From an uncultured bacterium (lineage in GTDB: Bacteria; Zixibacteria; MSB-5A5; UBA10806), in the NCBI GenBank assembly GCA_965541585.1, contig CBEUCH010000004.1:32001-96000 (forward strand): 64,000 nt of DNA. The letters are read 5' to 3'. Below the pieces are notes generated by a model that saw nothing but the letters and a program-made list of their open reading frames with translations, ran no database searches and was not told the origin of the DNA. Shown here in pieces: positions 3,044 to 42,015 of the stretch (positions are counted from its first letter, which is position 1; each line of letters starts with the position of its first letter). The position numbers were made by a program, and so were the translations under genes.

Positions 3044-3055
3044 TCCATCTCCGAT

Positions 3056-6586: not shown

Positions 6587-6596
6587 CTTTGCCCTT

Positions 6597-7205: not shown

Positions 7206-7316
7206 ATCATCTCCTCATCCGTTTCCACATTTAGAATTAATCCAAGGCATAATCCGGGGGAGTTTCCGCACCGGTAACATCGGCTTGCCTGCCGAATATC
7301 CAGAATCTTTAACCCT

Positions 7317-24377: not shown

Positions 24378-24652
24378 AATACATTCCCAGCATTCGCTCA
24401 AATTGGCTTGCGAAGCCGCAATTCCGGAGTATTCCCCACCATATAAGTCTCAGGGCATAGCCTGACAGGCTTAAGCGAAATAGGTCGGCGAATCGCGGTC
24501 AGAGGATTCATCTCCTGAAGGCAAACCTCTTTCCGAGTCTCTCAGACAATAAAAGGCTGGATAAATATATACTTCAAGTCCGGCCTAAAATTATATTCAC
24601 AAGGCAAGATTCTCGTGGTATAAATCCTGAGGAAACAAAAAAAGGAGGAAAA

Positions 24653-25915
24653 ATGAGACGGACCGAAAAAAGAGGTCACTGCAGTTATTTTTGGCAGGCG
24701 TTGTTCACAGCGATAATCATAGCGTTGATCCTGCCTATTCCATCTCAGGCAATCGAAATCGGCGACGGGCTCGATCTCGGTGGAAATGTGCGCTGGCGGG
24801 CTGAACTGGACGGTAAGGATTTCTCAGATAAGACCGCCATGAACGAAATGTCCCTCCTGAGGAGCCGGGTTGGTTTGACTATAACCGCTATCGAGAATAC
24901 CACCCTTTATCTCCAGATGCAGGATTCGCGGAATCTGGGTGTAAACTCGTCCGGCCTGACAAACGACACCAATCTCGGAATCCATCAGGCCTATATTGAA
25001 ATGTCGAACATCGTCACCAGGGGGCTGTCGTTGCAGCTCGGTAGATTTGAGGCCGTCTACGGCCGCCACCGGTTGATGGGCAACGTGGGCTGGGACAATG
25101 TCGGACGGTCGTTCGACGGTGGCCGCCTGATGCGCAGAGGCAAGACTTACAGCGCCGATATCTTCGTCCTGAAGGTAATAGAGCGTTCGTTCAACGCACC
25201 ACCCAATCACAAGGACCGGAAGCTTTATGGTTTACACAGCACCTTCCTTGAAGATCGCCTCGACCTTTTTGTTCTCTATGATTGGGATCAAATGAAAACC
25301 GGCGATGATTATAATCTGGCAAGATTCACGATAGGCTCATACTTCAAGAACAAGCTGGCATCCGGAATTGGATATGAATTCGATGCCGCTATTCAGACCG
25401 GTAACCGGGGCGCCCAGGATATTTCCGCTTATATGGTCGCCGGCGACCTCTATTATTCCCCGAAGCACAAAATGATGTTCATTTATTCAGAGGTGAGCAA
25501 AGTAGGAATCGGTTTTGATATAACCTCCGGTGACGATGATACCACCGACGATGAAATCAAATCGTTTAACAACTTGTATTATACCGGCCACAGATTCAGA
25601 GGATATATGGACTTTTTTCTGGGGACATCGACCCAGGGTCTGATGGATTTGATTTTTCGCGCCGCCGTTAAACCCCGTCCTCATTGCCAGATCTCTGTGG
25701 ATTTTCATCATTTCCGGACGATGGAAGACCATTTGACACCCGACGGTGATTCCTCCAAAGCGATCGGGCAGGAGATCGATATTACATTCAAGCGCAAACT
25801 GCAAAAAGGATTGACCTTCCAGGGCGGAATGTCAATGTTCATAGCATCGGATGACTGGATTGCCGACGCTGATCAGGCATACTGGCTTTACGCTATGATA
25901 TCCGCAGGCTTCTAA
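24653..25915 (+). CDS. Alginate-export (AlgE-like) outer-membrane beta-barrel
   Basis: Signal peptide, R.R.E, HQAY, W.NVGRSFDG and GQEID motifs, C-terminal Phe. Confidence 0.8.
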   Translation: MRRTEKRGHCSYFWQALFTAIIIALILPIPSQAIEIGDGLDLGGNVRWRAELDGKDFSDKTAMNEMSLLRSRVGLTITAIENTTLYLQMQDSRNLGVNSSGLTNDTNLGIHQAYIEMSNIVTRGLSLQLGRFEAVYGRHRLMGNVGWDNVGRSFDGGRLMRRGKTYSADIFVLKVIERSFNAPPNHKDRKLYGLHSTFLEDRLDLFVLYDWDQMKTGDDYNLARFTIGSYFKNKLASGIGYEFDAAIQTGNRGAQDISAYMVAGDLYYSPKHKMMFIYSEVSKVGIGFDITSGDDDTTDDEIKSFNNLYYTGHRFRGYMDFFLGTSTQGLMDLIFRAAVKPRPHCQISVDFHHFRTMEDHLTPDGDSSKAIGQEIDITFKRKLQKGLTFQGGMSMFIASDDWIADADQAYWLYAMISAGF

Positions 25916-25971
25916 CGATTTTCCGAATGGCGGTTTGACGGCAACGGAATACTTTGTGATAGTAAATGATA

Positions 25972-27528
25972 TTACATCATGCTTGAACGCATGTTCATAT
26001 CGAGGTGCATGATCGAGAGCGAGATAAAAGAAAATATGATCATGGCGGTCAGAAGAGGAACCTGCGCCAGTAGCGCTCTTTTCCCCGTGCCGAACATCTT
26101 TTCGCCGGCTTTAGCGGCTATTTTTATACCGAGGATATGGCCGGTTATTACCAGAATAACCTGCATGGTCCAAACGGTGTTATCGCTCAGAAACATTGGA
26201 TACGCTTTTCCAACGGTCCCGAACAGATTCCAGCCATAGCCGAACGGATCAGAGAGAAGCGGTATTATGCTCTGGCCCTCCATCCCCAGGTGCATTGTGT
26301 TGTGCGCCAGGTGATAGAATAGGGCGATCGGTATCAGGCTATATGAAAAGCGTATGAAAATCTCCCATGTCGAAATACCGTTACTGCCGATACGAGCCGA
26401 AAGCCAGCAGAGAAAATGGTACAGTGAATAAGGAACCAACAGGACAATACCCATACCGACTGTAAAAGAAAATAACGGTCCCAGTCCGAAAAGATTATTC
26501 ATAAAGGCGATTATGGAATTTCCTCCACCGGCTAAATCCTCCCAGAGCGGCGTCATGGATAGCCCGTGGAACGAGGTCAGCGAAAGCAGGATTACGGCCA
26601 GGATGGCCTCATCGGGCCTCGGCCTCGGGTAAGCGATGATATCAGTCCCTAACGGTCGTATATTAAATGCCACATTGTCCGAAGGACAGGCTTTGAAACA
26701 TTCGGTACACATTGTACAATATGTATTCTCATCCAGAGTAGTGAGATTGAGGCCGGTCGGACACGGATAGGCACCGCCGTTGCCTTTGTAACAGTCTTTG
26801 GTTTTACATTGCAGGCAGATACTATGATCTTTCGGCCGGATCTCAACGGGCGATATATTTGCGTAGAGTCCGGAAATTCTTCCCACGAGACAGCCGTACC
26901 GGCAAAAGGATTTCTTTTCGAAAATGAACACTGGAAGAACAACCAGCATAAGCATGAATAAACCCATTACGGCCGTGGCAAATGGATCGGTCGTGACCTT
27001 AAATCCCAGTTCGAGCCAGGTTAGTATTATAAAAAGCCCGATAGCCATCGATATATTGCGGGCCTTTTTCGGCCACTTCATGTTAAGCGAAAGAGGTTCT
27101 TTTGTTATTTTCCATAAACGCAGGCGACTTGCGATGGATGCAACAAGGTCCCACGGACAGGCAAAGCACCAGACTTTACCGAGGATCAGTATGGCAAAAA
27201 TAAGACCGCCCCACCAGATAGTCCATGTAAGCGTGGGCGCGATATTTATTCGAGGATTGCCGAAAAATCCCGCATACAGGATTATAACAAAAAGAAATAA
27301 AAGCGGCAGTTGAACGGAAAACTGAAGCCATCTCCTTTTTAGAAGATAATCGACAAAGCCGATTCGAGAAATGTCGAAACGGACATTGAGACTCTTGCCA
27401 CTTCTTTTAGAATAAAATATAAATGATACCAAGAGGACAAGTCCCACACCGGACAGAAACATCCAGGCGGGCAACCCGCTCATCAAATGAACACCGTTTT
27501 CGGCGTGGCAGCTAGCTGTCTCTCCCAA
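25972..27528 (-). CDS. Polytopic membrane 4Fe-4S-binding protein (NapH/NosR-C/FixG-like)
   Basis: WCFACPW, FCRYGCLVG, CLQC..CY and CTMCTECFKACP, with many TM helices. Confidence 0.8.
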   Translation of the reverse strand: MGETASCHAENGVHLMSGLPAWMFLSGVGLVLLVSFIFYSKRSGKSLNVRFDISRIGFVDYLLKRRWLQFSVQLPLLFLFVIILYAGFFGNPRINIAPTLTWTIWWGGLIFAILILGKVWCFACPWDLVASIASRLRLWKITKEPLSLNMKWPKKARNISMAIGLFIILTWLELGFKVTTDPFATAVMGLFMLMLVVLPVFIFEKKSFCRYGCLVGRISGLYANISPVEIRPKDHSICLQCKTKDCYKGNGGAYPCPTGLNLTTLDENTYCTMCTECFKACPSDNVAFNIRPLGTDIIAYPRPRPDEAILAVILLSLTSFHGLSMTPLWEDLAGGGNSIIAFMNNLFGLGPLFSFTVGMGIVLLVPYSLYHFLCWLSARIGSNGISTWEIFIRFSYSLIPIALFYHLAHNTMHLGMEGQSIIPLLSDPFGYGWNLFGTVGKAYPMFLSDNTVWTMQVILVITGHILGIKIAAKAGEKMFGTGKRALLAQVPLLTAMIIFSFISLSIMHLDMNMRSSMM

Positions 27529-28074
27529 TCAAGATTTCCTTTCTTTGAATCTTCTTTTTTTTAGTATCGCAACAATCACCGCGAAGGAAAGAATGAAAGC
27601 AATCGATCCCCCCAGATATGTCCATACAGGATTACCCATGCCGACTTTCAGATCGAAAAGAACGTTATTTTGCCTCAGCCCGTCGTTGAAGCTGACGCGC
27701 ACATAATAATGCCCGTCATCCTCGTAGACCCAGCCGACTTTATAAATATTGGTCGGGTTACGATAGGCGGTAAAGGGATGGCTCTCGGTGGGGTCCTCAT
27801 GCTTTCCAAATACCTTAAAGATTACGGCTCCATCGAAAACCTTGCTGGAGTCAATGTCGCGAATATATATGGCGAGGTCATATGCACCCTGGCCCGGTAT
27901 TTTGTAATATGTAAATGTGACGTCATAGTTATTGACGGTTTGAGTAACTTCATATACCGGAGTCTCCGGATAGTGATCCTGATAAGTATAATGCGGGATA
28001 CCGCGGATATGGTGGCCATAAGCGGTCGCCGCAAGAATGTGTAACACGGGCAATATCAAACGTATTTTGATCAT
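27529..28074 (-). CDS. Exported protein with C-terminal membrane anchor and His-rich N-terminus
   Basis: Signal peptide, mature start HHIRGIPHY, C-terminal TM plus basic tail. Start placed at MIKIRL. Confidence 0.7.
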   Translation of the reverse strand: MIKIRLILPVLHILAATAYGHHIRGIPHYTYQDHYPETPVYEVTQTVNNYDVTFTYYKIPGQGAYDLAIYIRDIDSSKVFDGAVIFKVFGKHEDPTESHPFTAYRNPTNIYKVGWVYEDDGHYYVRVSFNDGLRQNNVLFDLKVGMGNPVWTYLGGSIAFILSFAVIVAILKKRRFKERKS

Positions 28075-28081
28075 AACCGAT

Positions 28082-28993
28082 TCACTCCCCAACAGATTTT
28101 GCTTTGGCGCCCCATACATACACGAGGGCGTTCTTTTGTGTGCTATCGCAGGCGTCGATACATAAACCGCAATTGTCGCATTCTCCCGGAAATTCGCCCT
28201 TTGCCGGAACCAGATCGTAAGGGCAAGCAGGATTGCATAGACCGCACATATCGCATTTGGCCTCGACTCTTTTTATTCGCAGGAAACGCCATTTTCCTAT
28301 TATTGAGAACAATGCTCCCCCCGGGCAAATTCTCCTGCAGAACAGATGAGGCGAAAATAATATCTCTGCCGACCATAATATTATCAAAAACAATAATCCC
28401 CAGGTTATGGCGCCGGTGATTACTATGTGATAAACGCCCTCGGTAATCAGCCGCGGAGGATAAATCAAAACTGCAATGGGAATACTGATAACCGCTCCAA
28501 GTACAATTGATATCACCAAAAAGAAAAGGGATGATTGCCGGGGCAGATCGATGTTGAAATATTCGATTCCGAACCTCTTCAGATATTCTGTTAACCCTTT
28601 TCCCGCCTCCGCGAAAAGAGAATACGGACAAACCCAGGAGCAAAAATACCTGCCCAGAACCAGCAGGAGCACGACCGGAATAATAATGGAGAAAAGCAAG
28701 CCGTAATCGACTGTGAAAGAAGTAAAGGACGACACGACGAATGCCAGCGGATCTGAAAGCGAGAGCCCCAGGACTTTGAAGCTCCACAGCCCGCCTTCGA
28801 AATGTCCCCGGAAAAGCATCGGTTTATTTTCGCCTCCGAACGCGAAATCGTACGCCGAGAGCACAACCGATTCTTCGATTTCTCTTTCCGCTCCCAGCTG
28901 CCCTGCTTTTTTCTCATATAGGTTGGAATAAACCAGCAGGACCATTAGAGCGATTACAGATATTCTTGTGATGTTTCTATACTTTCGCACCAA
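28082..28993 (-). CDS. napH: NapH-like quinol dehydrogenase membrane subunit
   Basis: LSDPL, GRYFCSWVCP, FCRRICPGG and two CxxCxxCxxxC motifs. Confidence 0.85.
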   Translation of the reverse strand: MVRKYRNITRISVIALMVLLVYSNLYEKKAGQLGAEREIEESVVLSAYDFAFGGENKPMLFRGHFEGGLWSFKVLGLSLSDPLAFVVSSFTSFTVDYGLLFSIIIPVVLLLVLGRYFCSWVCPYSLFAEAGKGLTEYLKRFGIEYFNIDLPRQSSLFFLVISIVLGAVISIPIAVLIYPPRLITEGVYHIVITGAITWGLLFLIILWSAEILFSPHLFCRRICPGGALFSIIGKWRFLRIKRVEAKCDMCGLCNPACPYDLVPAKGEFPGECDNCGLCIDACDSTQKNALVYVWGAKAKSVGE

Positions 28994-29597
28994 CTTCTTC
29001 GACTTTTCCCGGTATGACTTTTATTGCTTGCGGGTAATGGATACATACCTGCTCGCACAGCCCGCATCCCACGCACTTATCCGTTACTACCGGTTGCTCC
29101 CAGGTTTCGGAATAAATGGCAATACCGTCGTAGGGACAGGCAAATACGCATACGCCGCAGACGTAACCGTTGAAGGAATTGCAGATGTTCTTATCGACAA
29201 CTGCTTTCCCCATCCTGACACTTTTTAAAATTTCCTCGGAATCATCAGGTATGGCAACAAGAGCGCCGCTGGGACAGGTGTTGTTGCACTTCATGCAGAG
29301 AATACAGCCTTTTTCGCGAGGTTTAATGTATGGTGTGCCGGTCATGGCGGGGTCGAAGCTGTCATAATATTTTATTGTCTCGTTGGGACATACCTGCCCG
29401 CAGCGCCGGCAGCGAATGCATTTGGAGAGAAACGCCTTTTCCGCCAGAGCTCCCGGTGGCCTTAATGGAGGATATTTCTTTCCGGGGATAAGTTTCTTAA
29501 CGCTGTAGAAACCACCGGCGAAAAGGGGCAAGGCGGGAATGACAGCAGCGACAAATGTTTTTAAAAACTCCCTTTTTTTCATATCTTCCCAGCTCAC
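28977..29597 (-). CDS. napG: NapG/MauM-like polyferredoxin
   Basis: Tat-like KREFLK, LRPPGA, CIRCRRCGQVCP, GTPYI, four Fe-S motifs. Confidence 0.88.
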   Translation of the reverse strand: MSWEDMKKREFLKTFVAAVIPALPLFAGGFYSVKKLIPGKKYPPLRPPGALAEKAFLSKCIRCRRCGQVCPNETIKYYDSFDPAMTGTPYIKPREKGCILCMKCNNTCPSGALVAIPDDSEEILKSVRMGKAVVDKNICNSFNGYVCGVCVFACPYDGIAIYSETWEQPVVTDKCVGCGLCEQVCIHYPQAIKVIPGKVEEVGAKV

Positions 29598-29625
29598 ACA
29601 AATGCGGGAAAACAGGTTCTATTAT

Positions 29626-32286
29626 TCAGATCTTTTCAATTCTGGCGGCCAGCTTTTTAAAATCGACCTGCCCCGATACCGGATCGTATGCCCGGTGCGA
29701 GGTTGCGTTTACAAGCCACTTGTTCTTCGCCGGATCGGCGGAGTCGGCCACCGACAGGTTCCACGGTGAAAAGATATATCCTTTAGGCACCTCGTTTCGA
29801 GCCGGTTTGATCTTGGATCGCACGCCGCCGATCGACACTCTTCCCTCATAGAAACCGCGGCGAGTGTGGACTCTGATTTTGTCGCCGTCGTTCAAACCGT
29901 TTTCACCGGCATCATCCGGATGTATCTCCACATACTGTTCGGGCACAAGCCTCCTGGTTGTCGCTCCCCTGATGGTTTTGGCGGTATGGAAATGTTCATA
30001 GACTATACCGAGGCCGAGCCAGAACGGATATTTGCTCTTGGGCACTTTGGCCCAATGTTTACCCAGATGTTCAAAATCGGGGAGTTCCGGCGTCAAGGCC
30101 ATATCCCTGGCCTGAATCAGAACATCATGATGATCCACCGCGTAATAGCCCGGTTCGGTTCCCATCTTTCGCATTTCCGCAAGAACCTTGCGACGTTTGC
30201 TGTAATCCTGGCGACAGATCTTAAAATGCATTTTGCCGTCCGGTTTGCGGAACATTCCATAAGGTTTATCCGCCCAGCTTTCCTGATCCATATACCGGCG
30301 CGTGGTGCCGCCGCGCTTTGCTATTTCATAATTCGGCGCAGGCCACTGAATTCCTTTCAGGCGTCTGATCTGATCATATAAACCGATACCGTCGCGTTCA
30401 CGCACCTCCAGAAGGCCGGTCATGTCACAATCGGTTCCTTTCGAACCCCGGACTATCTCCTCGAATATTTCTTCAGCGTCGTAAAGCTCCGGGCCGTCGG
30501 GATGGAATCTCTTCTTTTTATATGGGAATATAGTCTCGGAATCGAGTCCCATCATCCTTGCCAGCATTTTACCCTTGTCGATAGCCATATCAAGATCGGG
30601 CCAGCATTTCTCCAGACCGGGGGCGCCTTTTCCGACTCCGTCTACGACGTTGAATCTCCTCTCTGATGAGATATATGTTCCCCCCTGCCATTCGCCCCAG
30701 GTGAGAGCGGGAAATATAACGTCAGCATAAAGAACATTGGGAGCGTGACGGTAGATATCCTGAACTACAACAAACATTTTCCTCAACGCCGGTCGAATCA
30801 GGTTGTTCAGGTCAGGCTGATGTATGTGTGTCGTGTACATATAGAACATGGCTTTAACATCGTCCTTTAATGCCCTCTCAAACATGCCGACCATCATGCC
30901 CGGGTTTTTCGCCTTATTGACGATTTCAAGTCTCTCCTCGGGCAGGTTCCAGACCTGGTTCATCCATCCGCGATGTTTGTCGTCATTCAAACCGATATTG
31001 AATGGCAGACGTCCCGTAAGACCACCCATCAAACGCTCGCCCATAGCGTTGGGCTGGCCGGTCATAGAGAACGGGCCCGCTCCCGGACGGCCGATATCAC
31101 CGGTCAGGCAATGCAGGTTAATTATGCTGATAACATTGTGCTGACCGTGTATATGCTGATTGTAGCCGATACCCCAGAAGGAAATGACGCCACCCCTGCC
31201 TTTAGCTTTGCCCTTTCTGCTGGCGGCAGCCCACCGGGCTGCAACTTCCCGGATGAGTTTCGGATCAACCATCGTGCGGTCGCGTACCTTTTCCGGAGCG
31301 TACTCCTCCTTCACGACTTTTATATACTCCTCCCAGCCAACCGTATTCTCCTTTAGAAATTTATGGTCCACAACGTCGGGATGCTCGGTTACTATCACAT
31401 GCGCGATGGCATTTAATATGGATATATCGCCGTTGATGCTCTGGAAATGCGAACTGTTACGGGGACTTATGGATTCCAGGGCCTGAACAGTACCCGTCCT
31501 GCGAGGATCTGATACCACAGTAGGAATTCCGTTTTTCTTCTTGTGATCGGCTATCCTCCAGAAGATAATAGTATGCGCTGCACGCGCGTTATGCCCCCAC
31601 ATGGTAATCATATCCGCTTCTTCTATATCGTCATAGCTTAAGGGGGGAGTATCGGAACCGAGAGTAGCGAAATAGGCTGTAACGGCCGATGTCATACAGG
31701 TGCGGGCGTTGGCCTCGATGGAATTCGAGCCGAGAATTCCCTTCATCAGCTTATTCTCCATCCACTGCGCTTCCACCGTCAACTGTCCCGAACCATAGAG
31801 GCCGACGGAATTGCCGCCGTGGGCCTTGTATATCTCCATTATCTTTTCGGCGACGAGATGTTCGGCTTCCTCATACGATGCTTCTTCAAACAGATCATCG
31901 TCGAACCGTCCCTTAGTGGCGGATTCGTATCCCTTCATAGGATCCGACATATCCTTGCGAACCAGCACCCTGTCGAGGCGGTCGACATATGTCGGCTCGT
32001 CAGCGTTCAAGCCTTTGATACATTGGACGCCCTTGTTGGTTGGATGTTGTTTATCGGGTATCACTCCGAGGATCCGCCCGGTCTTGTCCGCCTTGATTAT
32101 AGTGCCGCAACCTACCCCGCAATAAGGACACTGGCTGATCAAGCTCTGGGCGACCGGTGAGAGCTCGCCTACTTCCGCCAGCAGTTTCTCCGGAGCGAAA
32201 ATAGCCGAACCCAGTCCCAGAGCGGTCGCGCCGGCAACCGAACCCCTCAAGAAATTTCTTCTGGTAACTGATCCCTTTTTCGGCAT
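29626..32286 (-). CDS. napA: Tat-exported Mo-bisPGD nitrate reductase catalytic subunit (NapA/NarB family)
   Basis: TRRNFL Tat motif, CPYCGVGC..C [4Fe-4S], GSGQ, NARTCMTSAV (Cys-Met active site), TGQPNAMG and DPVSGQ.DFK. Confidence 0.82.
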   Translation of the reverse strand: MPKKGSVTRRNFLRGSVAGATALGLGSAIFAPEKLLAEVGELSPVAQSLISQCPYCGVGCGTIIKADKTGRILGVIPDKQHPTNKGVQCIKGLNADEPTYVDRLDRVLVRKDMSDPMKGYESATKGRFDDDLFEEASYEEAEHLVAEKIMEIYKAHGGNSVGLYGSGQLTVEAQWMENKLMKGILGSNSIEANARTCMTSAVTAYFATLGSDTPPLSYDDIEEADMITMWGHNARAAHTIIFWRIADHKKKNGIPTVVSDPRRTGTVQALESISPRNSSHFQSINGDISILNAIAHVIVTEHPDVVDHKFLKENTVGWEEYIKVVKEEYAPEKVRDRTMVDPKLIREVAARWAAASRKGKAKGRGGVISFWGIGYNQHIHGQHNVISIINLHCLTGDIGRPGAGPFSMTGQPNAMGERLMGGLTGRLPFNIGLNDDKHRGWMNQVWNLPEERLEIVNKAKNPGMMVGMFERALKDDVKAMFYMYTTHIHQPDLNNLIRPALRKMFVVVQDIYRHAPNVLYADVIFPALTWGEWQGGTYISSERRFNVVDGVGKGAPGLEKCWPDLDMAIDKGKMLARMMGLDSETIFPYKKKRFHPDGPELYDAEEIFEEIVRGSKGTDCDMTGLLEVRERDGIGLYDQIRRLKGIQWPAPNYEIAKRGGTTRRYMDQESWADKPYGMFRKPDGKMHFKICRQDYSKRRKVLAEMRKMGTEPGYYAVDHHDVLIQARDMALTPELPDFEHLGKHWAKVPKSKYPFWLGLGIVYEHFHTAKTIRGATTRRLVPEQYVEIHPDDAGENGLNDGDKIRVHTRRGFYEGRVSIGGVRSKIKPARNEVPKGYIFSPWNLSVADSADPAKNKWLVNATSHRAYDPVSGQVDFKKLAARIEKI

Positions 32287-32293
32287 GGCAGAA

Positions 32294-34816
32294 CTACTCC
32301 TTCCCTTGCTTTATAAATGCAATAACATCATTGACCTCTTTGCCAGTGAATTCAGTGAGACCACCGCCACCCCTCATCATCGAACGCATAGCCGACTCAT
32401 GCCGTCCCAATGACATTGTCGCCTGCAAGTACCCCACAGACGCCGCCTTGACAAAATCCGGCCTCAGCAGATCCGGGGCAAAAGAGCCACTGTGATGGCA
32501 TTGGCTGCACTGCCTTTCATATACCTCCGCGCCTATTTGCGGCGTGCCGACAACGTATTTGGGGCCTATTTCATCCTCATCTTTAGTGCGAAGATAGTTT
32601 ACTATTCCCATGGCGGTATTCATATCGATTTCAACGAAACCGCCCCTGCCGAATTTTTTCATCTCGCTTCCGTCGCGACCCGACATCATCATGGCAATTA
32701 TGAAACCGTCGGAGGTCATCTCCAGGAAGCCCGGGCGGCCTATGCCGGGACCGTTACCACCGCCACCCCCGGGACCGTGACATTGCGCGCAAAAACGATT
32801 GAAATCGTCTCGTCCGTTAATACTCTCGCCCGGTATGGTGCTGATTCCGACGAAAACCGGAGGATTATCTTCGAATGTTCTTATATAAGCGACAATATCA
32901 TTTATCTCTTTCCTGGTGAGATCGACTGTACCGTCCCGCCCTTTTAGATTTCCTTTCATCGGAGATCCGGTACGTCCGTATGCAATCATCTCCCATATAA
33001 ATTCGTCGGATGCCGTCTTGAGAAAATCATGTGAGGTTATAGACGGTCCAACGTAGCCTCGACCTGATTCCCCATGGCACTGCGCACAGATTCTATCGAA
33101 CAGTTTCCTGCCGTTGAATTCAGAGCCATTGATTTTCATACTTGTTGTGCCGGTAACCGGTCCTCGATATCCGGAACGTAAAAACGAGACGATATCGCCA
33201 AGCGACTTTGCTCCCAGATAATTATAGCTCCCCATCGCCGTCCCGCGTCTGCCTCCGGTTAATGTCGCATGCAGGAACCTGCTATTGGCGAAGCGCAGGA
33301 ATTCGGGAGAATTCAAGGACGGCCCTATACCTCCCTCGGCGTTATCGCCATGGCAGGATGCACAATTTTCAGAGTAGACTTTTTGTCCCGTTCTCGCGGA
33401 GCCGTTTTGAATAGCGCGTCGGAACGAGGCGTAACTAATAACAGGATAGCGCCAGGAATCCATATATTCCAGCAGGTCGGCCAGGTCATATCTGGAGAGG
33501 AAGTTCCAGGCGGGCATGGCGGTGCCGGCTCGGCCTTTGATAATCGTTTCGTAAAGCAGCCGGTTATTCATAAGGGAAAGAAGCTGCGGCGATAGGAGCG
33601 TCGGCCCGATCATGTCCGTCTCATAATCGCCGTCGATTCCGTGACAACCGGCACAATTAGAATTGAAAATAACCCGCCCGTAGCCGACCTCACCTTTCGT
33701 CTCAACTACTTCTTTATAAGCAGGAGCTTTTTTTCTAAGAGACAACACATATGATGCTATCTTGTCGATTTCAGGATTCGATAATCCTCCACCCCGCCCC
33801 CAGGCCGGCATGATCGCAGATCCGGACCCCGAAATTATGGCGCTCAAAAACGCCTGGTCAGCAATCGCCAAAAACTGCGGGTTGCCAAGAGCCGGTCCCA
33901 TCTTGCCGAGTTCCGTGTAATTTGTTCCGCCGCCTTCCTTGCCGTGACAGGCGGAGCAATAGCTCATATAGAGATCGCGTTTTGTCTCCTCTATTGTTCC
34001 GGACGAGGCTATCATGCCTTCGGGGATAGAGAATTCCTGAAACGACTTCATGTAGACTGTCAGGTTTAATGCTTCCTGTTCGGAAAAGCCATAATCTATC
34101 ATTCCCGATGAATCCGGCTGGATTTTCGGTTGATATACCGACTCGAAAATAAAAGCCATGTTAACATTGCCGTCAAAGCGATCTATATATTCATCCGCGT
34201 TATCGGGATGAGGACGTTTCAGATGGAATGACGCCTGGCCGATTGTGGTAAGATCAGGCCCCAGAGAACCACCTCGTCCACGCACTTTATGACATCCCTG
34301 GCAGCCGTTTTCTTTAAAAAGCCGTTCACCTCTCTGGTACGCGCCGGAGAGTTCCGGCATATCCGATCTATGGCAGCGGGCGCAATTGGCCTCCAAAAAC
34401 GGCGGCATTAATACCGGTTCTTCCCAGAATTCGATAAAATGGCTGACAGCGTGCTCGAAATCGGTGGCGCGCCCCTGTCCGTCGTGACAGATCGTACATC
34501 CGAAAATATTCAGATCGTGTTTTTCGAGATAGTCACCCGGATGGGTTTTTAACGGGTTATCGAGCTCGACAGCGCGCGGGTCGGTTATGGAGACGTGACA
34601 GATTACGCAACGGTCGATCTTATCTATTTCCGGCAAGACCAGTTGACGATAATCTATTTTGAACTCAGATCCCGAATCTGTATCTGACACGAAATCGGAG
34701 TATTGACGCTGATAACTTTTCCATTCCGGGGTGAGAAACTCGGCGGCGGCCCCGATCAGAAGTAACACAATTACCAGGGAACTGGCCCAGAACATCAGTT
34801 TTTTTGTCGCGTTCAT
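32294..34816 (-). CDS. Membrane-anchored decaheme cytochrome c
   Basis: N-terminal TM and 10 CxxCH motifs (CVICH, CTICH, CARCH, CQGCH, CSACH, CAGCH, CASCH, CAQCH x2, CSQCH). The N-terminal region is homologous to 1052..3043. Confidence 0.9.
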   Translation of the reverse strand: MNATKKLMFWASSLVIVLLLIGAAAEFLTPEWKSYQRQYSDFVSDTDSGSEFKIDYRQLVLPEIDKIDRCVICHVSITDPRAVELDNPLKTHPGDYLEKHDLNIFGCTICHDGQGRATDFEHAVSHFIEFWEEPVLMPPFLEANCARCHRSDMPELSGAYQRGERLFKENGCQGCHKVRGRGGSLGPDLTTIGQASFHLKRPHPDNADEYIDRFDGNVNMAFIFESVYQPKIQPDSSGMIDYGFSEQEALNLTVYMKSFQEFSIPEGMIASSGTIEETKRDLYMSYCSACHGKEGGGTNYTELGKMGPALGNPQFLAIADQAFLSAIISGSGSAIMPAWGRGGGLSNPEIDKIASYVLSLRKKAPAYKEVVETKGEVGYGRVIFNSNCAGCHGIDGDYETDMIGPTLLSPQLLSLMNNRLLYETIIKGRAGTAMPAWNFLSRYDLADLLEYMDSWRYPVISYASFRRAIQNGSARTGQKVYSENCASCHGDNAEGGIGPSLNSPEFLRFANSRFLHATLTGGRRGTAMGSYNYLGAKSLGDIVSFLRSGYRGPVTGTTSMKINGSEFNGRKLFDRICAQCHGESGRGYVGPSITSHDFLKTASDEFIWEMIAYGRTGSPMKGNLKGRDGTVDLTRKEINDIVAYIRTFEDNPPVFVGISTIPGESINGRDDFNRFCAQCHGPGGGGGNGPGIGRPGFLEMTSDGFIIAMMMSGRDGSEMKKFGRGGFVEIDMNTAMGIVNYLRTKDEDEIGPKYVVGTPQIGAEVYERQCSQCHHSGSFAPDLLRPDFVKAASVGYLQATMSLGRHESAMRSMMRGGGGLTEFTGKEVNDVIAFIKQGKE

Positions 34817-34831
34817 TCCCGATTACTCCGC

Positions 34832-36430
34832 TTAATGGACCGGCCATAGCGATGGCCACCAGTAAAAATCCCAGTTCGGGCCTCGATGGACAGTTGCGAA
34901 ATACGTTAAAATCATAAACCCGACAATAAAACAGGTAAATATGGCAACGGCACCGAGGCGGGTTGAGCCGGATCGATTGAGGATCCGAAGAGACCACCAG
35001 ACGAAAGCCCCGGTCAATATGGTTCCGGGATTGATCGCAATAATTATTATCTGCGGAATATTCGGGAACCAGTTGCGCAGCCAGCCGAAAATGATAGTGA
35101 ACGCAAGCATAACGACAATGCAAATCGACGAGAATATAAGAGAATCTCTGAATATTTTTTTCTCGCTCTTATCGGGGAACCACAATCCCGATTCGCCCCG
35201 TGTCCTGTCCAGAAACGGAATAAGGATTATGCCCAATACTGCTATTCCGGGAATTGCCATTCCGCCAATAAATGCCGAATACGATACCAGTTCCTGAAGC
35301 CCCAGAAAATACCATGGGGCCTTGGCAGGATTTTCCGGCACCAGCGGGTTGGCAGCCTCTTTCAAAGGTGCATTGGAAATGAATGACAAAGTAATCACGG
35401 CCGCCAGCATGATGGCGAAAACCGCCATTTCCGCATGGAACAGATGCGGCCATGAGGCTACTGTTTTATTCGGGCCATTATTGACGTTGTTACCGGAGCC
35501 CTTGATAATAGCCATCAGACCATACGTTTTCCCCTCTGTGGGGAATGCCATCTCCGCTTTTTCATCCCTTGGGGTGTTTATCAACATATCTTCAGAGATA
35601 ACCGAGGGGCGCGACAGCCCGCCGTCTTTTCTGATTCGCCAGAAATGAACGCCGATCAAGGCTGTCATGGTTAGCGGCAGGAAAACGCAATGCAGGAAAT
35701 AAAATCTGATAAGCGCCTCCTCCCCCACGACATCGGCGCCAAGCAGAAGAAGCTTTTGCAATCGTCCTATATCAAAAATGCCTGTGATTCCCAGTGCATC
35801 TGTAAGTTCGGTGGGCGAGGCCGCTATCTGAGTCCCGATAGTAGTTGCCCAGTAGGCCAACTGGTCCCATGGCAAAAGATAACCTGTAAATGAAAGAGCA
35901 AGAGTCAACGTGAACAACAGCATACCGATCATCCAGTTGAATTGCCGGGGGAACCTGTATGATCCTGTATAGAAAACTCTTACCATATGAAGGATCACCG
36001 CTATTACCATTCCGTGTGCCGCCCAGCGGTGAACGTTTCTCATCAGCCTGCCACCCGGAACCGCGAAATGAATATCCTTAATGGAATTGTAGGCGCCTGC
36101 TGCGGACGGCTTATAATATATCATCAATAATACACCGGTAACGGCAAGAATAATAAACAAAGCCGCGGTGGCTACTCCAAGGCCCAGCGTAAAAGTTTTC
36201 TTCAGACTATATCTGTGGGTCCGAACCGAATGAATGTGCAAAAACAGATTCCCGAACACCGACTGGGAAACCGCCCGGGCAGATGTTCTTGGCCCGTGGC
36301 GAATTGTCGATTCTTTAAACGACTTCGGGAGCCTCTTTATATTGGCTTTAAATTTCTCAAAGCCACTGATCGAATTTGCCGGCGTCGTTTTATCAGGCAT
36401 GGAAAACCCCTTTTGTTCCGGGTTTGACAT
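34832..36430 (-). CDS. petB: Cytochrome b of a Rieske/cyt b complex (fused)
   Basis: [25 protein letters not shown]-x14-HFW and [12 protein letters not shown] motifs, with extra C-terminal TMs. Confidence 0.92.
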   Translation of the reverse strand: MSNPEQKGFSMPDKTTPANSISGFEKFKANIKRLPKSFKESTIRHGPRTSARAVSQSVFGNLFLHIHSVRTHRYSLKKTFTLGLGVATAALFIILAVTGVLLMIYYKPSAAGAYNSIKDIHFAVPGGRLMRNVHRWAAHGMVIAVILHMVRVFYTGSYRFPRQFNWMIGMLLFTLTLALSFTGYLLPWDQLAYWATTIGTQIAASPTELTDALGITGIFDIGRLQKLLLLGADVVGEEALIRFYFLHCVFLPLTMTALIGVHFWRIRKDGGLSRPSVISEDMLINTPRDEKAEMAFPTEGKTYGLMAIIKGSGNNVNNGPNKTVASWPHLFHAEMAVFAIMLAAVITLSFISNAPLKEAANPLVPENPAKAPWYFLGLQELVSYSAFIGGMAIPGIAVLGIILIPFLDRTRGESGLWFPDKSEKKIFRDSLIFSSICIVVMLAFTIIFGWLRNWFPNIPQIIIIAINPGTILTGAFVWWSLRILNRSGSTRLGAVAIFTCFIVGFMILTYFATVHRGPNWDFYWWPSLWPVH

Positions 36431-36854
36431 AGGAGTTCAGATCGATCTCCACCTGGCCCGAAGGAAGCTGCACTACTTTATGCCAGTTCAAGCCTTTCGG
36501 CGCCGGGCCCTTAGTCACATTTCCTCTACCTCCAAACCTGGAACCGTGACATGGGCAATCAAATCCGCTTCCGGTCCAGGCAACAACGCATCCCAAATGG
36601 GTGCATGTCGTTGATATAGCGTAAATCCCTTCATCATCGGAGAAAACGATTACTCTTTCCTTTTCGAAAGGTTTTACTGTCCCGGCCGGGTAATCCGATG
36701 CCGGTCCCAGTTTAATCTTCTTCGTCTCCTGCGGCAATAGTGTGGGAAGAGTAAACCTGGCCAGCGATGCTATCCAGATTCCGATAGCCCCGATAAACGT
36801 TGCGGGCGCGAATTTCGACAAGAAATCGCGTCTTGATTTCCTTTTTCCCTCCAT
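36393..36854 (-). CDS. petC: Rieske [2Fe-2S] protein
   Basis: SRRDFL, CTHLGC, CPCHGSRF and GPAP motifs. Confidence 0.93.
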   Translation of the reverse strand: MEGKRKSRRDFLSKFAPATFIGAIGIWIASLARFTLPTLLPQETKKIKLGPASDYPAGTVKPFEKERVIVFSDDEGIYAISTTCTHLGCVVAWTGSGFDCPCHGSRFGGRGNVTKGPAPKGLNWHKVVQLPSGQVEIDLNSYVKPGTKGVFHA

Positions 36855-38693
36855 TTATGGACCCACCTCGCAAAAGGTTACTCTTTCCATAGTCACGGCC
36901 CCGACAGGGCACCGTTCCGCGCAACAGGCGCATCTGATACACGACGTTTCATCCTTAATAATGGCAGAATCATTTTCGGCAAAGCCAATATCCGCCAGCT
37001 TTACCGCGTCGCCGTTTATCTCCAGATCTTCTAAGGATACAATCTTCAAACAGAACTCAGGACAGACGTCCACACAGCCTCCACAGAGAACGCAGGCCTC
37101 TCCGTTGAAAATCGTATTTACGCCGCAATCGAGACATCGGCTCGCCTCGGTAAGTGCCTCCCTGTCGGAATAGCCAATCTCAACAACGGGGTATCCGGAT
37201 TTCAAACGTTCCGAAGGTTCAATTGTGGGGATGTTTTGACGCTGGATCTCTTCGTAGGATGCTTCGCGGGCGTAGTTTTCGATTTCCGTATGATCGATTT
37301 CAAGTTCCGGCTCGAAATCTCTTTCCGGAAGTCCAGCGGCGATGGTTCTGGCTACCTTCTTGCCGTGGGCTACGGCATCAATAACCAACCTTGCACCGTA
37401 GGCGCAGTCGCCTGCGAAAAATAACCACGGCCACTCCGTGCTGCCGTCCTCATTAACATCGACGAAGCCTCTTTCATTTAATTCCACCCCGTCGCGCTCC
37501 GGTCTGATAAACGATAGATCTATTTGCTGGCCTACTGAGAGGACTACGGTATCGCAGCGGATTTCACTGATCTCCTTTTCATCAAAGGTCGGCGCGAAAC
37601 GGCCCTTATCGTCAAGTACAGAAACGCATTTTTTGAATTTAACGCCTGCTATTTTGTCATTTTCAATGATAATTTCGCTTGGCCCGATTGAAATATGTCG
37701 GATAATCCCTTCCTCTTCTCCCTCGAGAATCTCCATCTCGTCAGCAGGCATCTCTTCTAAGGATTCCAGACAGCAAAGGTGGACTTCCCTGACGCCCCTG
37801 ACTCGTTTTGCCTGCCGGGAAACATCGAACGGCTCGTTGCGCAGGATGGTTCTTCCCACATCGTAAGCAACCGACCCTCCGCCTATAACAACAACCTTCT
37901 CTCCCAGTCTAACGTTTTCTCCGAGGCTCACGGCGCGAAGAAATTCAACGCCTCCCAGTATATCATGATGATCCGCTCCCGGCATAGGCAGTTTCCTTGA
38001 GCGCTTGGCTCCAACGGCAACAACAACAGCGTCATACTCCGTGGCGAGCTCGTTCAATTGAATATCTTTGCCAACTGTGATACCGGTTTTGAATTCCACT
38101 CCCAAGGTCTCTATAATTTCAATCTCCGCGGAAATAGTATCGCGTGGAAGACGGTAATCCGGAATACCGATAGCCAGCATGCCGCCCTTAACGTTTTCAG
38201 CTTCGTAAACTGTGGGAGTAAAGCCTAATAACGCCAGGTCATGTGCACAGGCAAGCCCTGCCGGCCCCGAGCCGATTATCGCCACCTTAATAGCGTTCTT
38301 TTTGCCCGGATAATCATAAGCGGTAAGCTCTTCTCTGCTTATGTTTTCGCGGTTTGTTACGTATTGGCGGATGTTTTCCAAAAGCTTTGACCTCTCCTCG
38401 TTACCGTGCCCCTGGAAATATTTTTCGGCCGCAAAACGTTTCAAGGCTCTTATTGAAATAGGCTTATCTATATCCCCTCGCCTGCAATTGACCTCACAAG
38501 GGGCGGCGCATATTCTGCCGCAAATCGACGCCAGGGGATTCGGTCCCCTGGCTATCAAATAAGCGTTTTCAAAATTGCCATTGGCGACAGCACGAACATA
38601 ACCCCTGGCATCCGTACAGACTGGGCAAGCGTCCTGACATTTTATCTGTTTCTGCCAATAGCCGTTATCCGGTATTTCAACACGGTAACTCAT
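36855..38693 (-). CDS. NAD(P)-dependent FAD/Fe-S oxidoreductase (GltD/NfnB/DsrL-like)
   Basis: Paralog of 4778..6586 with the same Cys motifs, GSGPAG, GGGSVA and two C-terminal ferredoxin motifs. Confidence 0.9.
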   Translation of the reverse strand: MSYRVEIPDNGYWQKQIKCQDACPVCTDARGYVRAVANGNFENAYLIARGPNPLASICGRICAAPCEVNCRRGDIDKPISIRALKRFAAEKYFQGHGNEERSKLLENIRQYVTNRENISREELTAYDYPGKKNAIKVAIIGSGPAGLACAHDLALLGFTPTVYEAENVKGGMLAIGIPDYRLPRDTISAEIEIIETLGVEFKTGITVGKDIQLNELATEYDAVVVAVGAKRSRKLPMPGADHHDILGGVEFLRAVSLGENVRLGEKVVVIGGGSVAYDVGRTILRNEPFDVSRQAKRVRGVREVHLCCLESLEEMPADEMEILEGEEEGIIRHISIGPSEIIIENDKIAGVKFKKCVSVLDDKGRFAPTFDEKEISEIRCDTVVLSVGQQIDLSFIRPERDGVELNERGFVDVNEDGSTEWPWLFFAGDCAYGARLVIDAVAHGKKVARTIAAGLPERDFEPELEIDHTEIENYAREASYEEIQRQNIPTIEPSERLKSGYPVVEIGYSDREALTEASRCLDCGVNTIFNGEACVLCGGCVDVCPEFCLKIVSLEDLEINGDAVKLADIGFAENDSAIIKDETSCIRCACCAERCPVGAVTMERVTFCEVGP

Positions 38694-39118
38694 TTCCTCT
38701 TGCCTTTGGCATTTGAGGGAGTGGATAGGTCGGCAAGAGTCATTTTTTTTGACCTGGTCAGTATCTCTTTTCTAAAACTGCCCCAGGATTCGTGAAAAAT
38801 ACACGAATCTTGCCCTGAACAGCTTTTCAATCCCAAAACACATTCTTCCTTCAGGTTTGTAACGCCGCCAAGAACTTTCAAAATATTATACAGGGTTACC
38901 TTTCCGGGGTCAATCGAGAGTGTCACCCCGCCATTTGGCCCTTTGGTGGAGGTAATGAGCCTTTTTCTCCCCAGATCCGTCAGAACCTTAGCCAGAAAAT
39001 GCGCCGGAATATCAAGTTCACTCGCCACTTCCTTTGCTTTTACAATAGTACCCCTGGGAAGGCCGGCGAGATATCGCAGAGATTCAAGGGCGTAGACGAT
39101 TGACTGAGGATAGATCAT
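38690..39118 (-). CDS. Rrf2-family transcriptional regulator, probably Fe-S binding
   Basis: IP.HFLAKVL..L, S.KGPNGG and a C-x6-C-x5-C-x2-H cluster. Confidence 0.92.
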   Translation of the reverse strand: MIYPQSIVYALESLRYLAGLPRGTIVKAKEVASELDIPAHFLAKVLTDLGRKRLITSTKGPNGGVTLSIDPGKVTLYNILKVLGGVTNLKEECVLGLKSCSGQDSCIFHESWGSFRKEILTRSKKMTLADLSTPSNAKGKRK

Positions 39119-39197
39119 TTCAGAAAACCCACCTTTAATATCAGACCCGGGTCATCAAATCCAGGCCGGAATCCGAATTTCGGACCCTCAATTCGCA

Positions 39198-39226
39198 AAT
39201 TAACAACTATATGTTTCGCCTGTCAA
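39198..39226 (-). promoter_or_regulatory. Putative sigma70 promoter of operon 2
   Basis: TTGACA-N17-TTAATT about 80 nt upstream of the rrf2 start. Short palindromes (GACCCGGGTC, CCGAATTTCGG) lie in the leader. Confidence 0.45.
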
Positions 39227-39301
39227 GTATTTTCCGATTTCGCATGATCGTTCGGTATTTATTCTGATGAAAGGGCTACACGGGAGGATTCCAGCTTTAG
39301 G

Positions 39302-41236: not shown

Positions 41237-41343
41237 GATGTCGATAATATATGAAAATCCCGGCTATAATAAAAAGTGTTTATTAGCATTAAATCTCATC
41301 TGACCCAGCTGCCACCAGCGGGGACACCAGGTATTGGGGGCGA

Positions 41344-42015
41344 TCATCTCCGTTTTTCCTTCAGACGCCGAGCTTCATTCAGATGCAGAAAGCAATGCCG
41401 GGTGGGTGGCATTAAGAGCAGGCCCGCAATATCGCGCCCGCCCCAGTAGTCGACTATGCTTTTACCTTCCTTCAGCATAGCTTTTTCATCCCATATCCTT
41501 TTCAGGCGGGAAGGCTCAACTCTGTGCTTTAAATCCCCGGGCTTTAATTTTCTGACTAATTTTCTCGTACTCAAGGCTACTGCTATACGATACGCCTTTA
41601 GCGCCTCTATATCGATTCCGGCGCTAAGCCCGGCTATTTCTTTGTCATACATTCCGTTGCCGGTATGACGGTTCCTGGTCTTCATCTGCTTCAACCAGTC
41701 ACCCATATTGATGACCTGCTGATTATCAGCTATCAGCAGATTCATAGTGACATCTTCGATACGGGCCAGATGCCAGATTATCCAGGCGATGGAGTGGTTA
41801 TAGTTACGGGGGATTCGTCGAATAATCCCTTCCGATATATCCTGCAAAACTTCGTCTTCGAATGAATACAATCCAGACCTCGACATCCCGGCCGAATGTA
41901 CCATGGCGTGTTGACTCAAGAATAATTCAATTGCCTCTTGATGATTATCCGAGCTTGAAAGGGCGTGCCTTAATGCTTTCTGTTGTGGATTCCATAATTT
42001 TCGATTAGATTCCAT
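41344..42015 (-). CDS. DinB-family protein
   Basis: HSIAWIIWHLARIED and a C-terminal H...H metal-binding pattern. Confidence 0.75.
   Translation of the reverse strand: MESNRKLWNPQQKALRHALSSSDNHQEAIELFLSQHAMVHSAGMSRSGLYSFEDEVLQDISEGIIRRIPRNYNHSIAWIIWHLARIEDVTMNLLIADNQQVINMGDWLKQMKTRNRHTGNGMYDKEIAGLSAGIDIEALKAYRIAVALSTRKLVRKLKPGDLKHRVEPSRLKRIWDEKAMLKEGKSIVDYWGGRDIAGLLLMPPTRHCFLHLNEARRLKEKRR

Follow-up and report, generated by a model that had tools for sequence, protein, structure and literature searches.

We analyzed a stretch of 64,000 nucleotides (nt), hereafter the window, from an uncultured bacterium of the phylum Zixibacteria (GenBank assembly GCA_965541585.1, contig CBEUCH010000004.1, positions 32,001 to 96,000 of the forward strand). 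It contains an operon of ten minus-strand open reading frames (ORFs), all in one direction, with checked coordinates spanning 25972-39118 (Table 1). It combines a NapA-like molybdoenzyme (Mo enzyme) and NapG- and NapH-like iron–sulfur (Fe-S) proteins with a Rieske/cytochrome b pair, a decahaem cytochrome c, and a flavoprotein of the type that binds nicotinamide and flavin adenine dinucleotides (NAD(P) and FAD). On balance, we lean towards reading this operon as a respiratory module complete in itself, in which a periplasmic oxyanion, most probably nitrate (to nitrite), is reduced by a NapGH route plus a dedicated bc complex. Successive genes are separated by −4, 0, −38, +15, +7, +28, −17, −38, and 0 nt. 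Families were called by Pfam and NCBIfam profile searches of the window proteins with curated cut-offs. A first-pass annotation, made by a model from the letters alone, had listed the same ten tightly spaced genes, which is borne out by ORF coordinates, gap lengths, and family calls. The array exceeds chance, as the same order was found in 10 genome loci from four phyla and in metagenome loci.

Table 1. Genes of the operon and the adjoining porin gene, with window positions, strand, and the matches or motifs on which each call is based (aa, amino acids; bis-MGD, bis-molybdopterin guanine dinucleotide; Tat, twin-arginine translocation).
Feature	Positions	Strand	Matches and motifs
Rrf2-family regulator, 142 aa	38690..39118	−	TIGR00738, 87.5 bits (cut-off 73.3)
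NAD(P)/FAD flavoprotein, 612 aa, GltD/NfnB-like	36855..38693	−	N-terminal Fer4_20, Pyr_redox_2, C-terminal dicluster domain
Rieske [2Fe-2S] subunit, 153 aa	36393..36854	−	PF00355 above cut-off; CTHLGC and CPCHGS boxes
Cytochrome b, 532 aa, fused b6-like and subunit-IV-like parts	34832..36430	−	PF00033 and PF13631 above cut-off
Membrane-anchored decahaem cytochrome c, 840 aa	32294..34816	−	10 CxxCH
bis-MGD molybdoenzyme, 886 aa	29626..32286	−	Tat signal; Molybdopterin, Fe4S4, and Molydop_binding domains
NapG-like periplasmic 4x[4Fe-4S] ferredoxin, 206 aa, 16 Cys	28977..29597	−	TIGR00397, 110.5 bits, below cut-off
NapH-like membrane Fe-S protein, 303 aa	28082..28993	−	TIGR02163, 117.9 bits, below cut-off
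Exported, C-terminally anchored protein, 196 aa	27529..28119	−	No family
Polytopic membrane Fe-S protein, 518 aa, Fer4_5 / NapH-NosR-CcoG kind	25972..27528	−	Weak NapH similarity
AlgE-like outer-membrane beta-barrel, 420 aa	24653..25915	+	PF13372, 95.1 bits; convergent with operon

The molybdoenzyme and its constant core

Three features of NapA are present in the Mo enzyme, namely a Tat signal (TRRNFLRG), an N-terminal [4Fe-4S] cysteine box (CPYCGVGCG...C), and a cysteine ligand followed by Met. In the alignment, the Mo-ligand stretch ANARTCMTSAV corresponds to PNARHCMASAV of NapA and SRLCMSSAV of Nas-like proteins, but to ARTCHSPTV of a formate dehydrogenase, and the Arg in TGQPNAMGER is kept with Nas-like spacing. 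As the Cys-Met ligand, the Fe-S cysteine box, and the conserved Arg are all retained, the active site is predicted to be of the nitrate reductase type. Two other identities were considered and rejected: a formate dehydrogenase, because Met and not His follows the Mo-ligand Cys, and an arsenite oxidase, because the Cys ligand is present and the Rieske protein is of the bc type. The top solved relatives by sequence were NapA of Escherichia coli (257.5 bits) and Desulfovibrio desulfuricans (243.8 bits), followed by FdhF (221.6 bits). The first-pass annotation had labelled the enzyme as a Nap-type nitrate reductase. This label had to be loosened, as the enzyme fails both NapA equivalog models (336.4 bits against a cut-off of 904 for NF010055 and 315.3 against 930.55 for TIGR01706, with the match broken into three separate pieces) and branches outside NapA, Nas, and Fdh proteins in the tree described below. 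Nitrate is therefore a substrate that we infer from the active-site motifs.

Relatives of the Mo enzyme were searched among 1.84 billion cluster representatives. Scores fell steeply from 999 bits (55% identity) to 764, 540, and 457, and then passed into a continuum at about 316 bits and 35-39% identity. NCBIfam labels were assigned to 54 of the listed representatives, three of which pass the NapA cut-offs and two the Fdh-alpha cut-off; four clade representatives (P0121-P0124) reached no NCBIfam model at E ≤ 1e-130. This clade is sizeable and its sequences are closely conserved: at least 120 clusters share 62% identity or more with the query, and the only source names they bear are 'molybdopterin-dependent oxidoreductase', 'nitrate reductase', 'ferredoxin-nitrate reductase', and 'anaerobic selenocysteine-containing dehydrogenase'. 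Judged by sequence, the Mo enzyme is thus NapA-like but placed outside NapA, in a large unnamed clade that would be a cousin of NapA and Nas. As this abundant clade is named by no curated nitrate reductase model, gene surveys of the nitrogen cycle would miss or mislabel it. In the full-text literature outside subscription journals and supplements, we found no paper on the clade or the operon and no characterized clade member; the portions of PMC3903129, PMC12769810, and PMC10100899 available to us likewise mention neither. A structure predicted from a 13-row alignment was a poor model (mean predicted local distance difference test score, pLDDT, 62.5; active-site stretches below 50). Foldseek ranked the NapAs of D. 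desulfuricans and E. coli on top of its matches (TM 0.53-0.64), and neither the model nor these low-confidence matches were used as evidence.

Conservation was assessed in genomes (one per species) and metagenomes. Ten genome loci carry the Mo enzyme, distributed over Zixibacteria, Planctomycetota, Omnitrophota, and a magnetotactic member of Nitrospirota. All seven with enough upstream DNA encode flavoprotein, Rieske protein, cytochrome b, decahaem cytochrome, and Mo enzyme in this order; the other three end at contig edges. The metagenome scan, conducted with a 13-member clade alignment, yielded 505 related stretches, and 80 loci were kept for counts. In 56 of the 63 metagenome loci with at least 1.2 kb of upstream DNA, the gene immediately upstream of that for the Mo enzyme encodes a cytochrome c. 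Downstream genes were identified by BLAST in the 41 loci with at least 6.5 kb, which applies to NapG (41 loci), NapH (36), the 518-aa protein (35), and the 196-aa protein (18). Recurrence of the operon in other genomes had been proposed as a check on the first-pass annotation, and the gene order indeed recurs in genomes and metagenomes. The constant core brings the Mo enzyme together with a c-type cytochrome, NapG, NapH, and the 518-aa NapH-like protein, usually joined by the 196-aa protein. The set of flavoprotein, Rieske protein, and cytochrome b is an add-on to this core: of the 27 metagenome loci whose upstream DNA extends to at least 7.5 kb, 12 encode all three proteins together and 15 none of them. 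In a 78-row FastTree tree, bc-linked forms fall mostly into one 31-row subclade (branch value 99). A small separate group (L065, L071, and L082) bears bc genes as well, and four loci inside the subclade (L034, L038, L041, and L075) have none. Within its phylum, the Mo enzyme is patchily distributed: of 151 genomes sampled, 6 encode it, and the five other genomes of its own family all lack it. Genes for molybdenum cofactor biosynthesis flank the module in five loci (L028, L029, L075, L085, and L086), NnrS is encoded beside it in L085, hemerythrin in L038 and L086, sigma-54 activators in four loci, and AlgE-like porins in two of the 19 loci whose flanks were scanned with Pfam.

NapG and NapH of the window keep the NapGH domain plan: the ferredoxin contains 16 Cys, and the NapH-like protein combines four hydrophobic segments with a pair of CxxCxxCxxxC motifs. 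Curated cut-offs are reached neither by the NapG-like protein (132.8 bits against 269 for NF007012 and 110.5 against 178.85 for TIGR00397) nor by the NapH-like protein (117.9 against 213 for TIGR02163 and 110.6 against 234 for NF007013).

Two further core proteins could not be assigned to named families. The start of the 196-aa ORF was corrected relative to the first-pass annotation: the second Met is probably the true start, giving a normal signal peptide in addition to the C-terminal anchor. H36, H37, G40, P42, and P54 are invariant in 16 sequences, and the HH..G.P pattern is part of an HH-x2-G-x-PHY stretch (residues 36-45 of the 196-aa product) directly after the predicted signal-peptide cleavage site. 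The predicted structure (pLDDT 80.8) is a beta-sandwich, with low confidence in the HH-motif region. Its fold matches CrdA (9ll2; TMt 0.72, E 7.5e-5), then FetP and P19, all of them periplasmic copper proteins, so that the model looks like a periplasmic metal-binding protein, with copper as the candidate metal. Searches with phmmer retrieved 57 homologues in all, and some loci encode it as a fusion with NapH. The 518-aa protein has about ten hydrophobic segments and 14 Cys, including CFACP and CTMCTECFKACP motifs. Its earlier description as a membrane polyferredoxin stands as far as the membrane Fe-S kind is concerned; the polyferredoxin part does not, since there are only one complete CxxCxxCxxxCP and one CxxCP among the 14 Cys. 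Labels from the ESM Atlas ('YtkA-like' for the 196-aa and 'Fer4_5' for the 518-aa protein) were taken as leads only. Together, the two proteins may be akin to copper-handling pairs such as CcoG with a chaperone.

Further Nap components were sought throughout the genome, which comprises 3.52 Mb in 40 contigs and is 98.2% complete. No match to NapB (PF03892) or NapD (PF03927) was found anywhere in it, which confirms the absence of napB and napD noted for the operon and leaves no cognate copy elsewhere. None of its proteins exceeded the cut-off of the NapA model TIGR01706, and the top match was the Mo enzyme of the operon itself. With napC the outcome was mixed: the operon has none, as had been noted, but the genome holds two matches to the NapC/NirT family (PF03264), both far from the operon and in other contexts. 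The first, a hexahaem protein of 523 aa, is encoded next to an NrfC/NrfD-like pair, and the second is the N-terminus of an HAO-family octahaem protein. Two genes encode chaperones of the TorD/NarJ family, each adjoining another Mo enzyme. On a different contig (C18:41257-43365 and C18:50111-53997), a 1149-aa NarG-like enzyme of the type II dimethyl sulfoxide reductase kind is encoded with its own TorD/NarJ-family chaperone. It scores far below the NarG cut-off, and ORFs nearby contain 20 and 28 CxxCH motifs.

The Rieske/cytochrome b module and the decahaem cytochrome

Two hallmarks of bc1/b6f-type complexes, namely a Rieske CxHxGC...CxCH pattern and four bis-His haem ligands, are present in the operon. 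The Rieske protein carries the boxes CTHLGC (84-89) and CPCH (100-103) and an SRRDFL Tat motif with an anchor. Its best matches in the PDB are 8hn2, of the b6f type (66.4 bits), followed by 9rk3 (64.7 bits) and 9rk4 (60.2 bits), the molecule names of which follow the Kuenenia annotation style. For cytochrome b, the best alignment is with b6 (121.6 bits), and all four His that serve as haem ligands (134, 148, 247, and 262) are retained; five transmembrane (TM) segments are predicted in the part resembling subunit IV (SUIV). PEWY is the motif of quinol oxidation (Qo) sites, and the corresponding region reads K-A-P-W-Y at 370-374, identical in the paralogue described below.

The flavoprotein contains two GxGxxG/A motifs (141 and 271) and two dicluster regions, one of them in a C-terminal 2x[4Fe-4S] domain (C534..., C585...). 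As it has neither a signal peptide nor a TM segment, it is predicted to be cytoplasmic. The best solved relatives are NfnABC-type chains (9bov/9bp5, 280.7 bits), followed by NfnI and GltD. The family is widespread, with at least 120 clusters at 52% identity or more in Planctomycetota, Acidobacteriota, Latescibacterota, Firmicutes, and others. In every case examined, the genes of the Rieske protein and cytochrome b came with that of the flavoprotein, which applies to all 12 bc-linked metagenome loci that extend at least 7.5 kb upstream, all seven genome loci with enough flanking DNA, and the paralogue.

The paralogue is a second bc module in the window (630-6625, minus strand) that comes without a Mo enzyme. 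It encodes a flavoprotein of 615 aa (4778-6625), a Rieske protein of 164 aa, a cytochrome b of 416 aa, an octahaem cytochrome c of 663 aa, and a monohaem cytochrome c of 141 aa. The flavoproteins of the two modules are 43% and the cytochromes b 44% identical. Its flanks (6597-8782 upstream and L021:16112-18350 downstream) encode proteins of no family and two CarboxypepD_reg-like proteins, and a sigma-54 two-component pair is located nearby at 9015-11527.

A comparable design is known from anammox bacteria. According to the accessible portions of PMC12954380, the anammox clusters comprise a Rieske protein, a b6-like cytochrome b, a SUIV-like part with five instead of three helices, a multihaem cytochrome c that replaces cytochrome f, and, on the cytoplasmic side, an FAD/NAD(P) protein that has four Fe-S sites, and electron bifurcation was proposed for them. 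The closest known system to the operon is that of Kuenenia stuttgartiensis (Kuste4569-4574 and Kustd1480-1485), which shares the domain plan, the match being one of plan only; in Kuste4569-4574, a terminal catalytic protein is attached as well (same portions of PMC12954380). The Rieske protein of the operon matches 9rk3/9rk4, and the flavoprotein shares its NfnABC-type best relative with that of the anammox system; no Kuenenia name occurs among its best 120 relatives. Several differences set the two systems apart. The terminal enzyme of the operon is a molybdoenzyme with NapGH-like helpers, whereas that of Kuenenia is an HAO-like octahaem protein. In the operon, cytochrome b and SUIV are fused (532 aa) and the cN cysteine is missing (Gly83), and its cytochrome has ten haems, arranged as a tetrahaem module and six class-I domains. 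Furthermore, its hosts are not anammox bacteria but belong to Zixibacteria, Planctomycetota, Omnitrophota, and Nitrospirota. The statement of the first-pass annotation that the operon has its own Rieske/cytochrome b complex with an NAD(P)-type flavoprotein thus holds, and it has a published anammox analogue (PMC12954380, in part). A Rieske/cytochrome b complex that carries an NAD(P)-type flavoprotein has so far been discussed only for anammox bacteria, and the operon as a whole is apparently undescribed.

The decahaem cytochrome has exactly ten CxxCH motifs and one N-terminal TM segment. It is composed of a tetrahaem module (haems at 70, 107, 145, and 172) and six class-I domains (haems at 287-770). 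The first ~180 residues, comprising the anchor and haems 1-4, align with the multihaem cytochrome of the paralogous bc module. In other loci, the partner cytochromes are tandem copies of one class-I domain and align with residues ~264-840 (haems 5-10). The number of haems in the upstream cytochrome follows the presence of the bc genes, with ten haems (nine in two loci) where they are encoded and two, three, four, or six where they are not. Because its N-terminus matches the cytochrome of the paralogue and its class-I domains match the small partner cytochromes, the decahaem protein is the product of a fusion that joined a tetrahaem subunit of the bc type to the partner cytochrome of the Mo enzyme. 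The earlier suggestion that it takes the place of NapB gains comparative support, given that a cytochrome c gene immediately precedes that of the Mo enzyme in 56 of 63 loci and that these cytochromes are repeats of the class-I domain seen in haems 5-10. The history of this fusion offers a concrete and testable map of the electron path.

Proposed electron path and competing readings

In the path that we propose, the core, i.e., cytochrome c, Mo enzyme, NapG, NapH, and the 518-aa Fe-S protein, would form a NapGH-style route from quinol to the periplasm. In this lineage, a dedicated b6f-like Rieske/cytochrome b complex would be tied in, its tetrahaem subunit having been fused with the partner cytochrome. 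Quinol would be oxidized at Qo, and one electron would pass through the Rieske protein, the tetrahaem module, and the six class-I domains to Mo and the acceptor. Protons released outside would render the reduction electrogenic, as in the Qcr-Nap system of Campylobacter jejuni. The second, low-potential electron would cross the b haems and, in line with the anammox proposal, could exit through four Fe-S clusters and then FAD, ending on NAD(P)+. The flavoprotein is assigned to the low-potential side because its gene is always attached to those of the Rieske protein and cytochrome b; its delivery of the second electron to NAD(P)+ is a tentative element of the scheme.

With potentials of about −70 to −75 mV for menaquinol, +420 mV for nitrate, and −320 mV for NAD(P) (accessible portions of PMC12954380 and PMC6195509), a downhill step of ~490 mV pays for an uphill step of ~250 mV, so that bifurcation is thermodynamically possible. 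It is nevertheless doubtful that, outside anammox bacteria and in at least four phyla, the drop from menaquinol to nitrate pushes the second quinol electron uphill to NAD(P)+ and makes the complex a membrane-bound bifurcating NAD(P)H generator. If true, bifurcation would replace reverse electron transport through complex I, and a new Mo-enzyme clade would be tied to cellular reducing power. The linkage of the Mo enzyme to an NAD(P)-linked Rieske/cytochrome b complex shows that the anammox design is a general module, present in two copies in this genome, and bifurcation could then be tested beyond slow-growing anammox enrichments.

Energy-conserving periplasmic nitrate reduction via a bc complex is, as such, not new, contrary to what the first-pass annotation had implied. 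In C. jejuni, electrons reach Nap (and Tor) via QcrABC with an H+/2e− ratio of 2, as shown in the accessible portions of PMC6195509, and a similar arrangement has been proposed for Caldithrix abyssi (PMC5317091, in part). The napAGHBFLD system of C. jejuni resembles the operon in its periplasmic Mo reductase, NapG and NapH, the lack of NapC, and the electrogenic route from menaquinol via Rieske protein and cytochrome b (PMC6195509, same portions). It differs in that its bc complex is general and encoded elsewhere, NapB and NapD are present, the enzyme is a bona fide NapA, and there is neither a flavoprotein nor a decahaem cytochrome. The nap cluster of C. abyssi (Cabys_2564-2557) has its own Rieske and cytochrome b genes, and generation of proton motive force via this bc module is discussed in the accessible portions of PMC5317091; napB and napC are missing from it, and the suggested link is a multihaem cytochrome. 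There, the partner is the tetrahaem NapM, the gene of an epsilon-Hao is adjacent, and those portions describe no flavoprotein or decahaem cytochrome. The monomeric NapA of D. desulfuricans (napCMADGH) is a further relative, as it works without NapB, has a Cys-Mo ligand, and is among the best solved relatives (243.8 bits). The window enzyme is ~160 residues longer, only ~26-27% identical in a low-confidence fold alignment, and outside the NapA clade, and its operon has no NapC, NapM, or NapD, unlike that of D. desulfuricans.

Several observations weigh against the proposed module, and a first set concerns the electron path. Gly83 of cytochrome b aligns with the position of Cys35 in b6, which we take to bind haem cN, so that one station of the anammox electron path would be absent. 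The binding of the flavoprotein to the membrane complex and the direction of its electrons are both points that we infer. The bc module had been regarded as integral to the reductase, a view that does not survive the comparison of loci: it is missing in 15 of the 27 loci with at least 7.5 kb upstream, and the Mo enzyme therefore works without it. In consequence, NapGH may be the main electron donor in this operon too. The signal of NapG itself reads KKREFLK, with KR in the place of the RR found in 44 of 58 homologues from other loci. A second set concerns the substrate. The Mo enzyme remains below every curated nitrate reductase cut-off, including those of NasA (274 bits against 1000) and NasC (231 against 1100), and scores nearly as well with the Fdh-alpha model (317 against 666 bits). 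In a 64-row tree (quick LG+G4 search, no root inferred), a branch with a value of 99 separates the window enzyme and 12 clade rows from NapA, near-NapA, Nas-like, and Fdh-like rows. The NapA side comprises three NapA rows above the cut-off, nine near-NapA rows, and the Nas-like and Fdh-like rows; two unlabelled long-branch rows (P0179 and P0229) fall on the side of the window enzyme. The best curated match of cytochrome b is ExtP (238 bits against a cut-off of 290; NF040969/NF040970 pair), with ExtQ at 59.9 bits against 150, and it is not obvious what the conserved HH-motif protein would do in nitrate reduction.

The fate of nitrite adds to these doubts. In the whole genome, NrfA reached only 20.5 bits, below its cut-off, and NarG, NirK, NirS, and NIR_SIR were absent; among 130 flanking ORFs from 19 loci, no nir, nor, or nos family was found at E ≤ 1e-15. 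A stand-alone HAO-family octahaem protein (C1:351445-352728, 427 aa, 8 CxxCH, PF13447 with 101 bits), whose gene adjoins that of a methyltransferase and lies near a pyruvate formate-lyase gene, could consume nitrite and is the sole candidate found in the genome. Its presence is uninformative, as HAO-like octahaem proteins occur in 112 of the 151 genomes of the phylum sample and the Mo enzyme in 6. A specific companionship between the two was rejected on the same grounds, even though all six holders of the Mo enzyme have such a protein.

The most serious alternative keeps the architecture and exchanges the substrate for another periplasmic oxyanion, such as chlorate/perchlorate, selenate/selenite, tellurite, iodate, or arsenate. 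A clade apart from the named nitrate reductases and below every curated cut-off would fit this reading, as would a genome without a standard nitrite reductase. ExtP and ExtQ are b-type cytochromes of a selenite/tellurite reduction operon (NF040969, NF040970), and cytochrome b matches them best among curated models, though without reaching family membership. The HH-motif protein, which resembles metal-binding proteins, and its CcoG/NapH-like partner belong to the core, and a nitrate reductase has no obvious need for either. Even the NapA of C. jejuni reduces chlorate and perchlorate, according to the accessible portions of PMC12769810. Nevertheless, we consider a different oxyanion unlikely, since the Cys-Met ligand motif and the conserved Arg are of the Nap/Nas type, the closest solved structures by sequence are NapAs, and the NnrS, hemerythrin, and Rrf2 neighbours suit N-oxide stress better. 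Furthermore, the family is abundant across many phyla and habitats, which suits a common substrate such as nitrate.

A second alternative sees the flavoprotein as an electron input, by which NAD(P)H would feed FAD, the Fe-S clusters, and the b haems, and from there the quinone pool or the complex; the module would then be a reductase dependent on NAD(P)H and quinol, with no bifurcation. No direction is fixed by the sequence, known enzymes of the flavoprotein family (Nfn, GltD, and DPD-type) work in either direction, and cytochrome b has no cN cysteine. Such a route would, however, waste the energy conserved by complex I (PMC12954380, in part), and the conserved coupling of the flavoprotein to Rieske protein and cytochrome b is hard to explain by an NDH-2-like function alone, which makes this reading improbable. 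Still further from the proposed reductive module, the whole system could run in reverse, with the Mo enzyme oxidizing a periplasmic donor, electrons moving along the haem chain, and bc complex and flavoprotein driving them uphill to quinone or NAD(P)+ for autotrophy. To our knowledge, no Nap-type nitrite oxidase exists, which counts against this direction. A chain of class-I c-type domains with an NAD(P)-linked outlet would suit reverse electron flow, and AioA, which belongs to the same branch of the superfamily, is an oxidase that has a Rieske protein as its partner; however, AioA has no amino-acid ligand, where the Mo enzyme has a Cys (PMC10100899, in part, for both statements on AioA). The Fe-S box is of the Nap/Nas/Fdh type, the Rieske protein is a membrane subunit of the bc type whose gene adjoins that of cytochrome b, and the roles known for NapG and NapH are those of quinol dehydrogenase components in reductive systems, so that reverse operation is highly improbable.

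Regulation and neighbouring genes

The regulator at the head of the operon contains three Cys in a C-x6-C-x5-C-x2-H stretch, because of which it is probably an Fe-S sensor. Its gene overlaps that of the flavoprotein by 4 nt, and an Rrf2 gene was also found upstream of the operon in L028 (by Pfam) and in L037, L039, L040, and L080 (by BLAST). A scan of positions 24300-41500 revealed 36 promoter-like sites against 22.9 ± 5.5 in shuffled sequences and 20 terminator-like sites against 18.3 ± 4.1, and was uninformative. The strongest sigma-70-like −35/−10 match (11 of 12 positions) lies inside rrf2 (38913-38885, minus strand), ~190 nt upstream of the flavoprotein start; by its consensus match, it could serve the structural genes as an internal promoter. 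The search for inverted repeats, which covered rrf2 and the DNA upstream of it, gave a single 11-nt pair within the gene, and no operator could be named. The sequencing runs listed for this DNA comprised 14 DNA runs, each with a small share (0.18 or less), and no RNA run.

Next to the operon, the AlgE-like barrel may be an outer-membrane channel for an anionic substrate, a link that is based on recurrence only: homologues adjoin the operon in L012, L013, L041, L058, L075, and L086. Just past the porin gene (20031-24377, plus strand), a hybrid histidine kinase of 1448 aa is encoded, with at least five PAS domains, a GAF domain, and a receiver, and it may act as a sensor for the operon region. 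Further along the window, an 84-aa ORF (19102-19356, minus strand) matches the Pfam family Ribosomal_S6e (E 2.4e-10), an archaeal/eukaryotic ribosomal protein family that is unusual in a bacterial genome.

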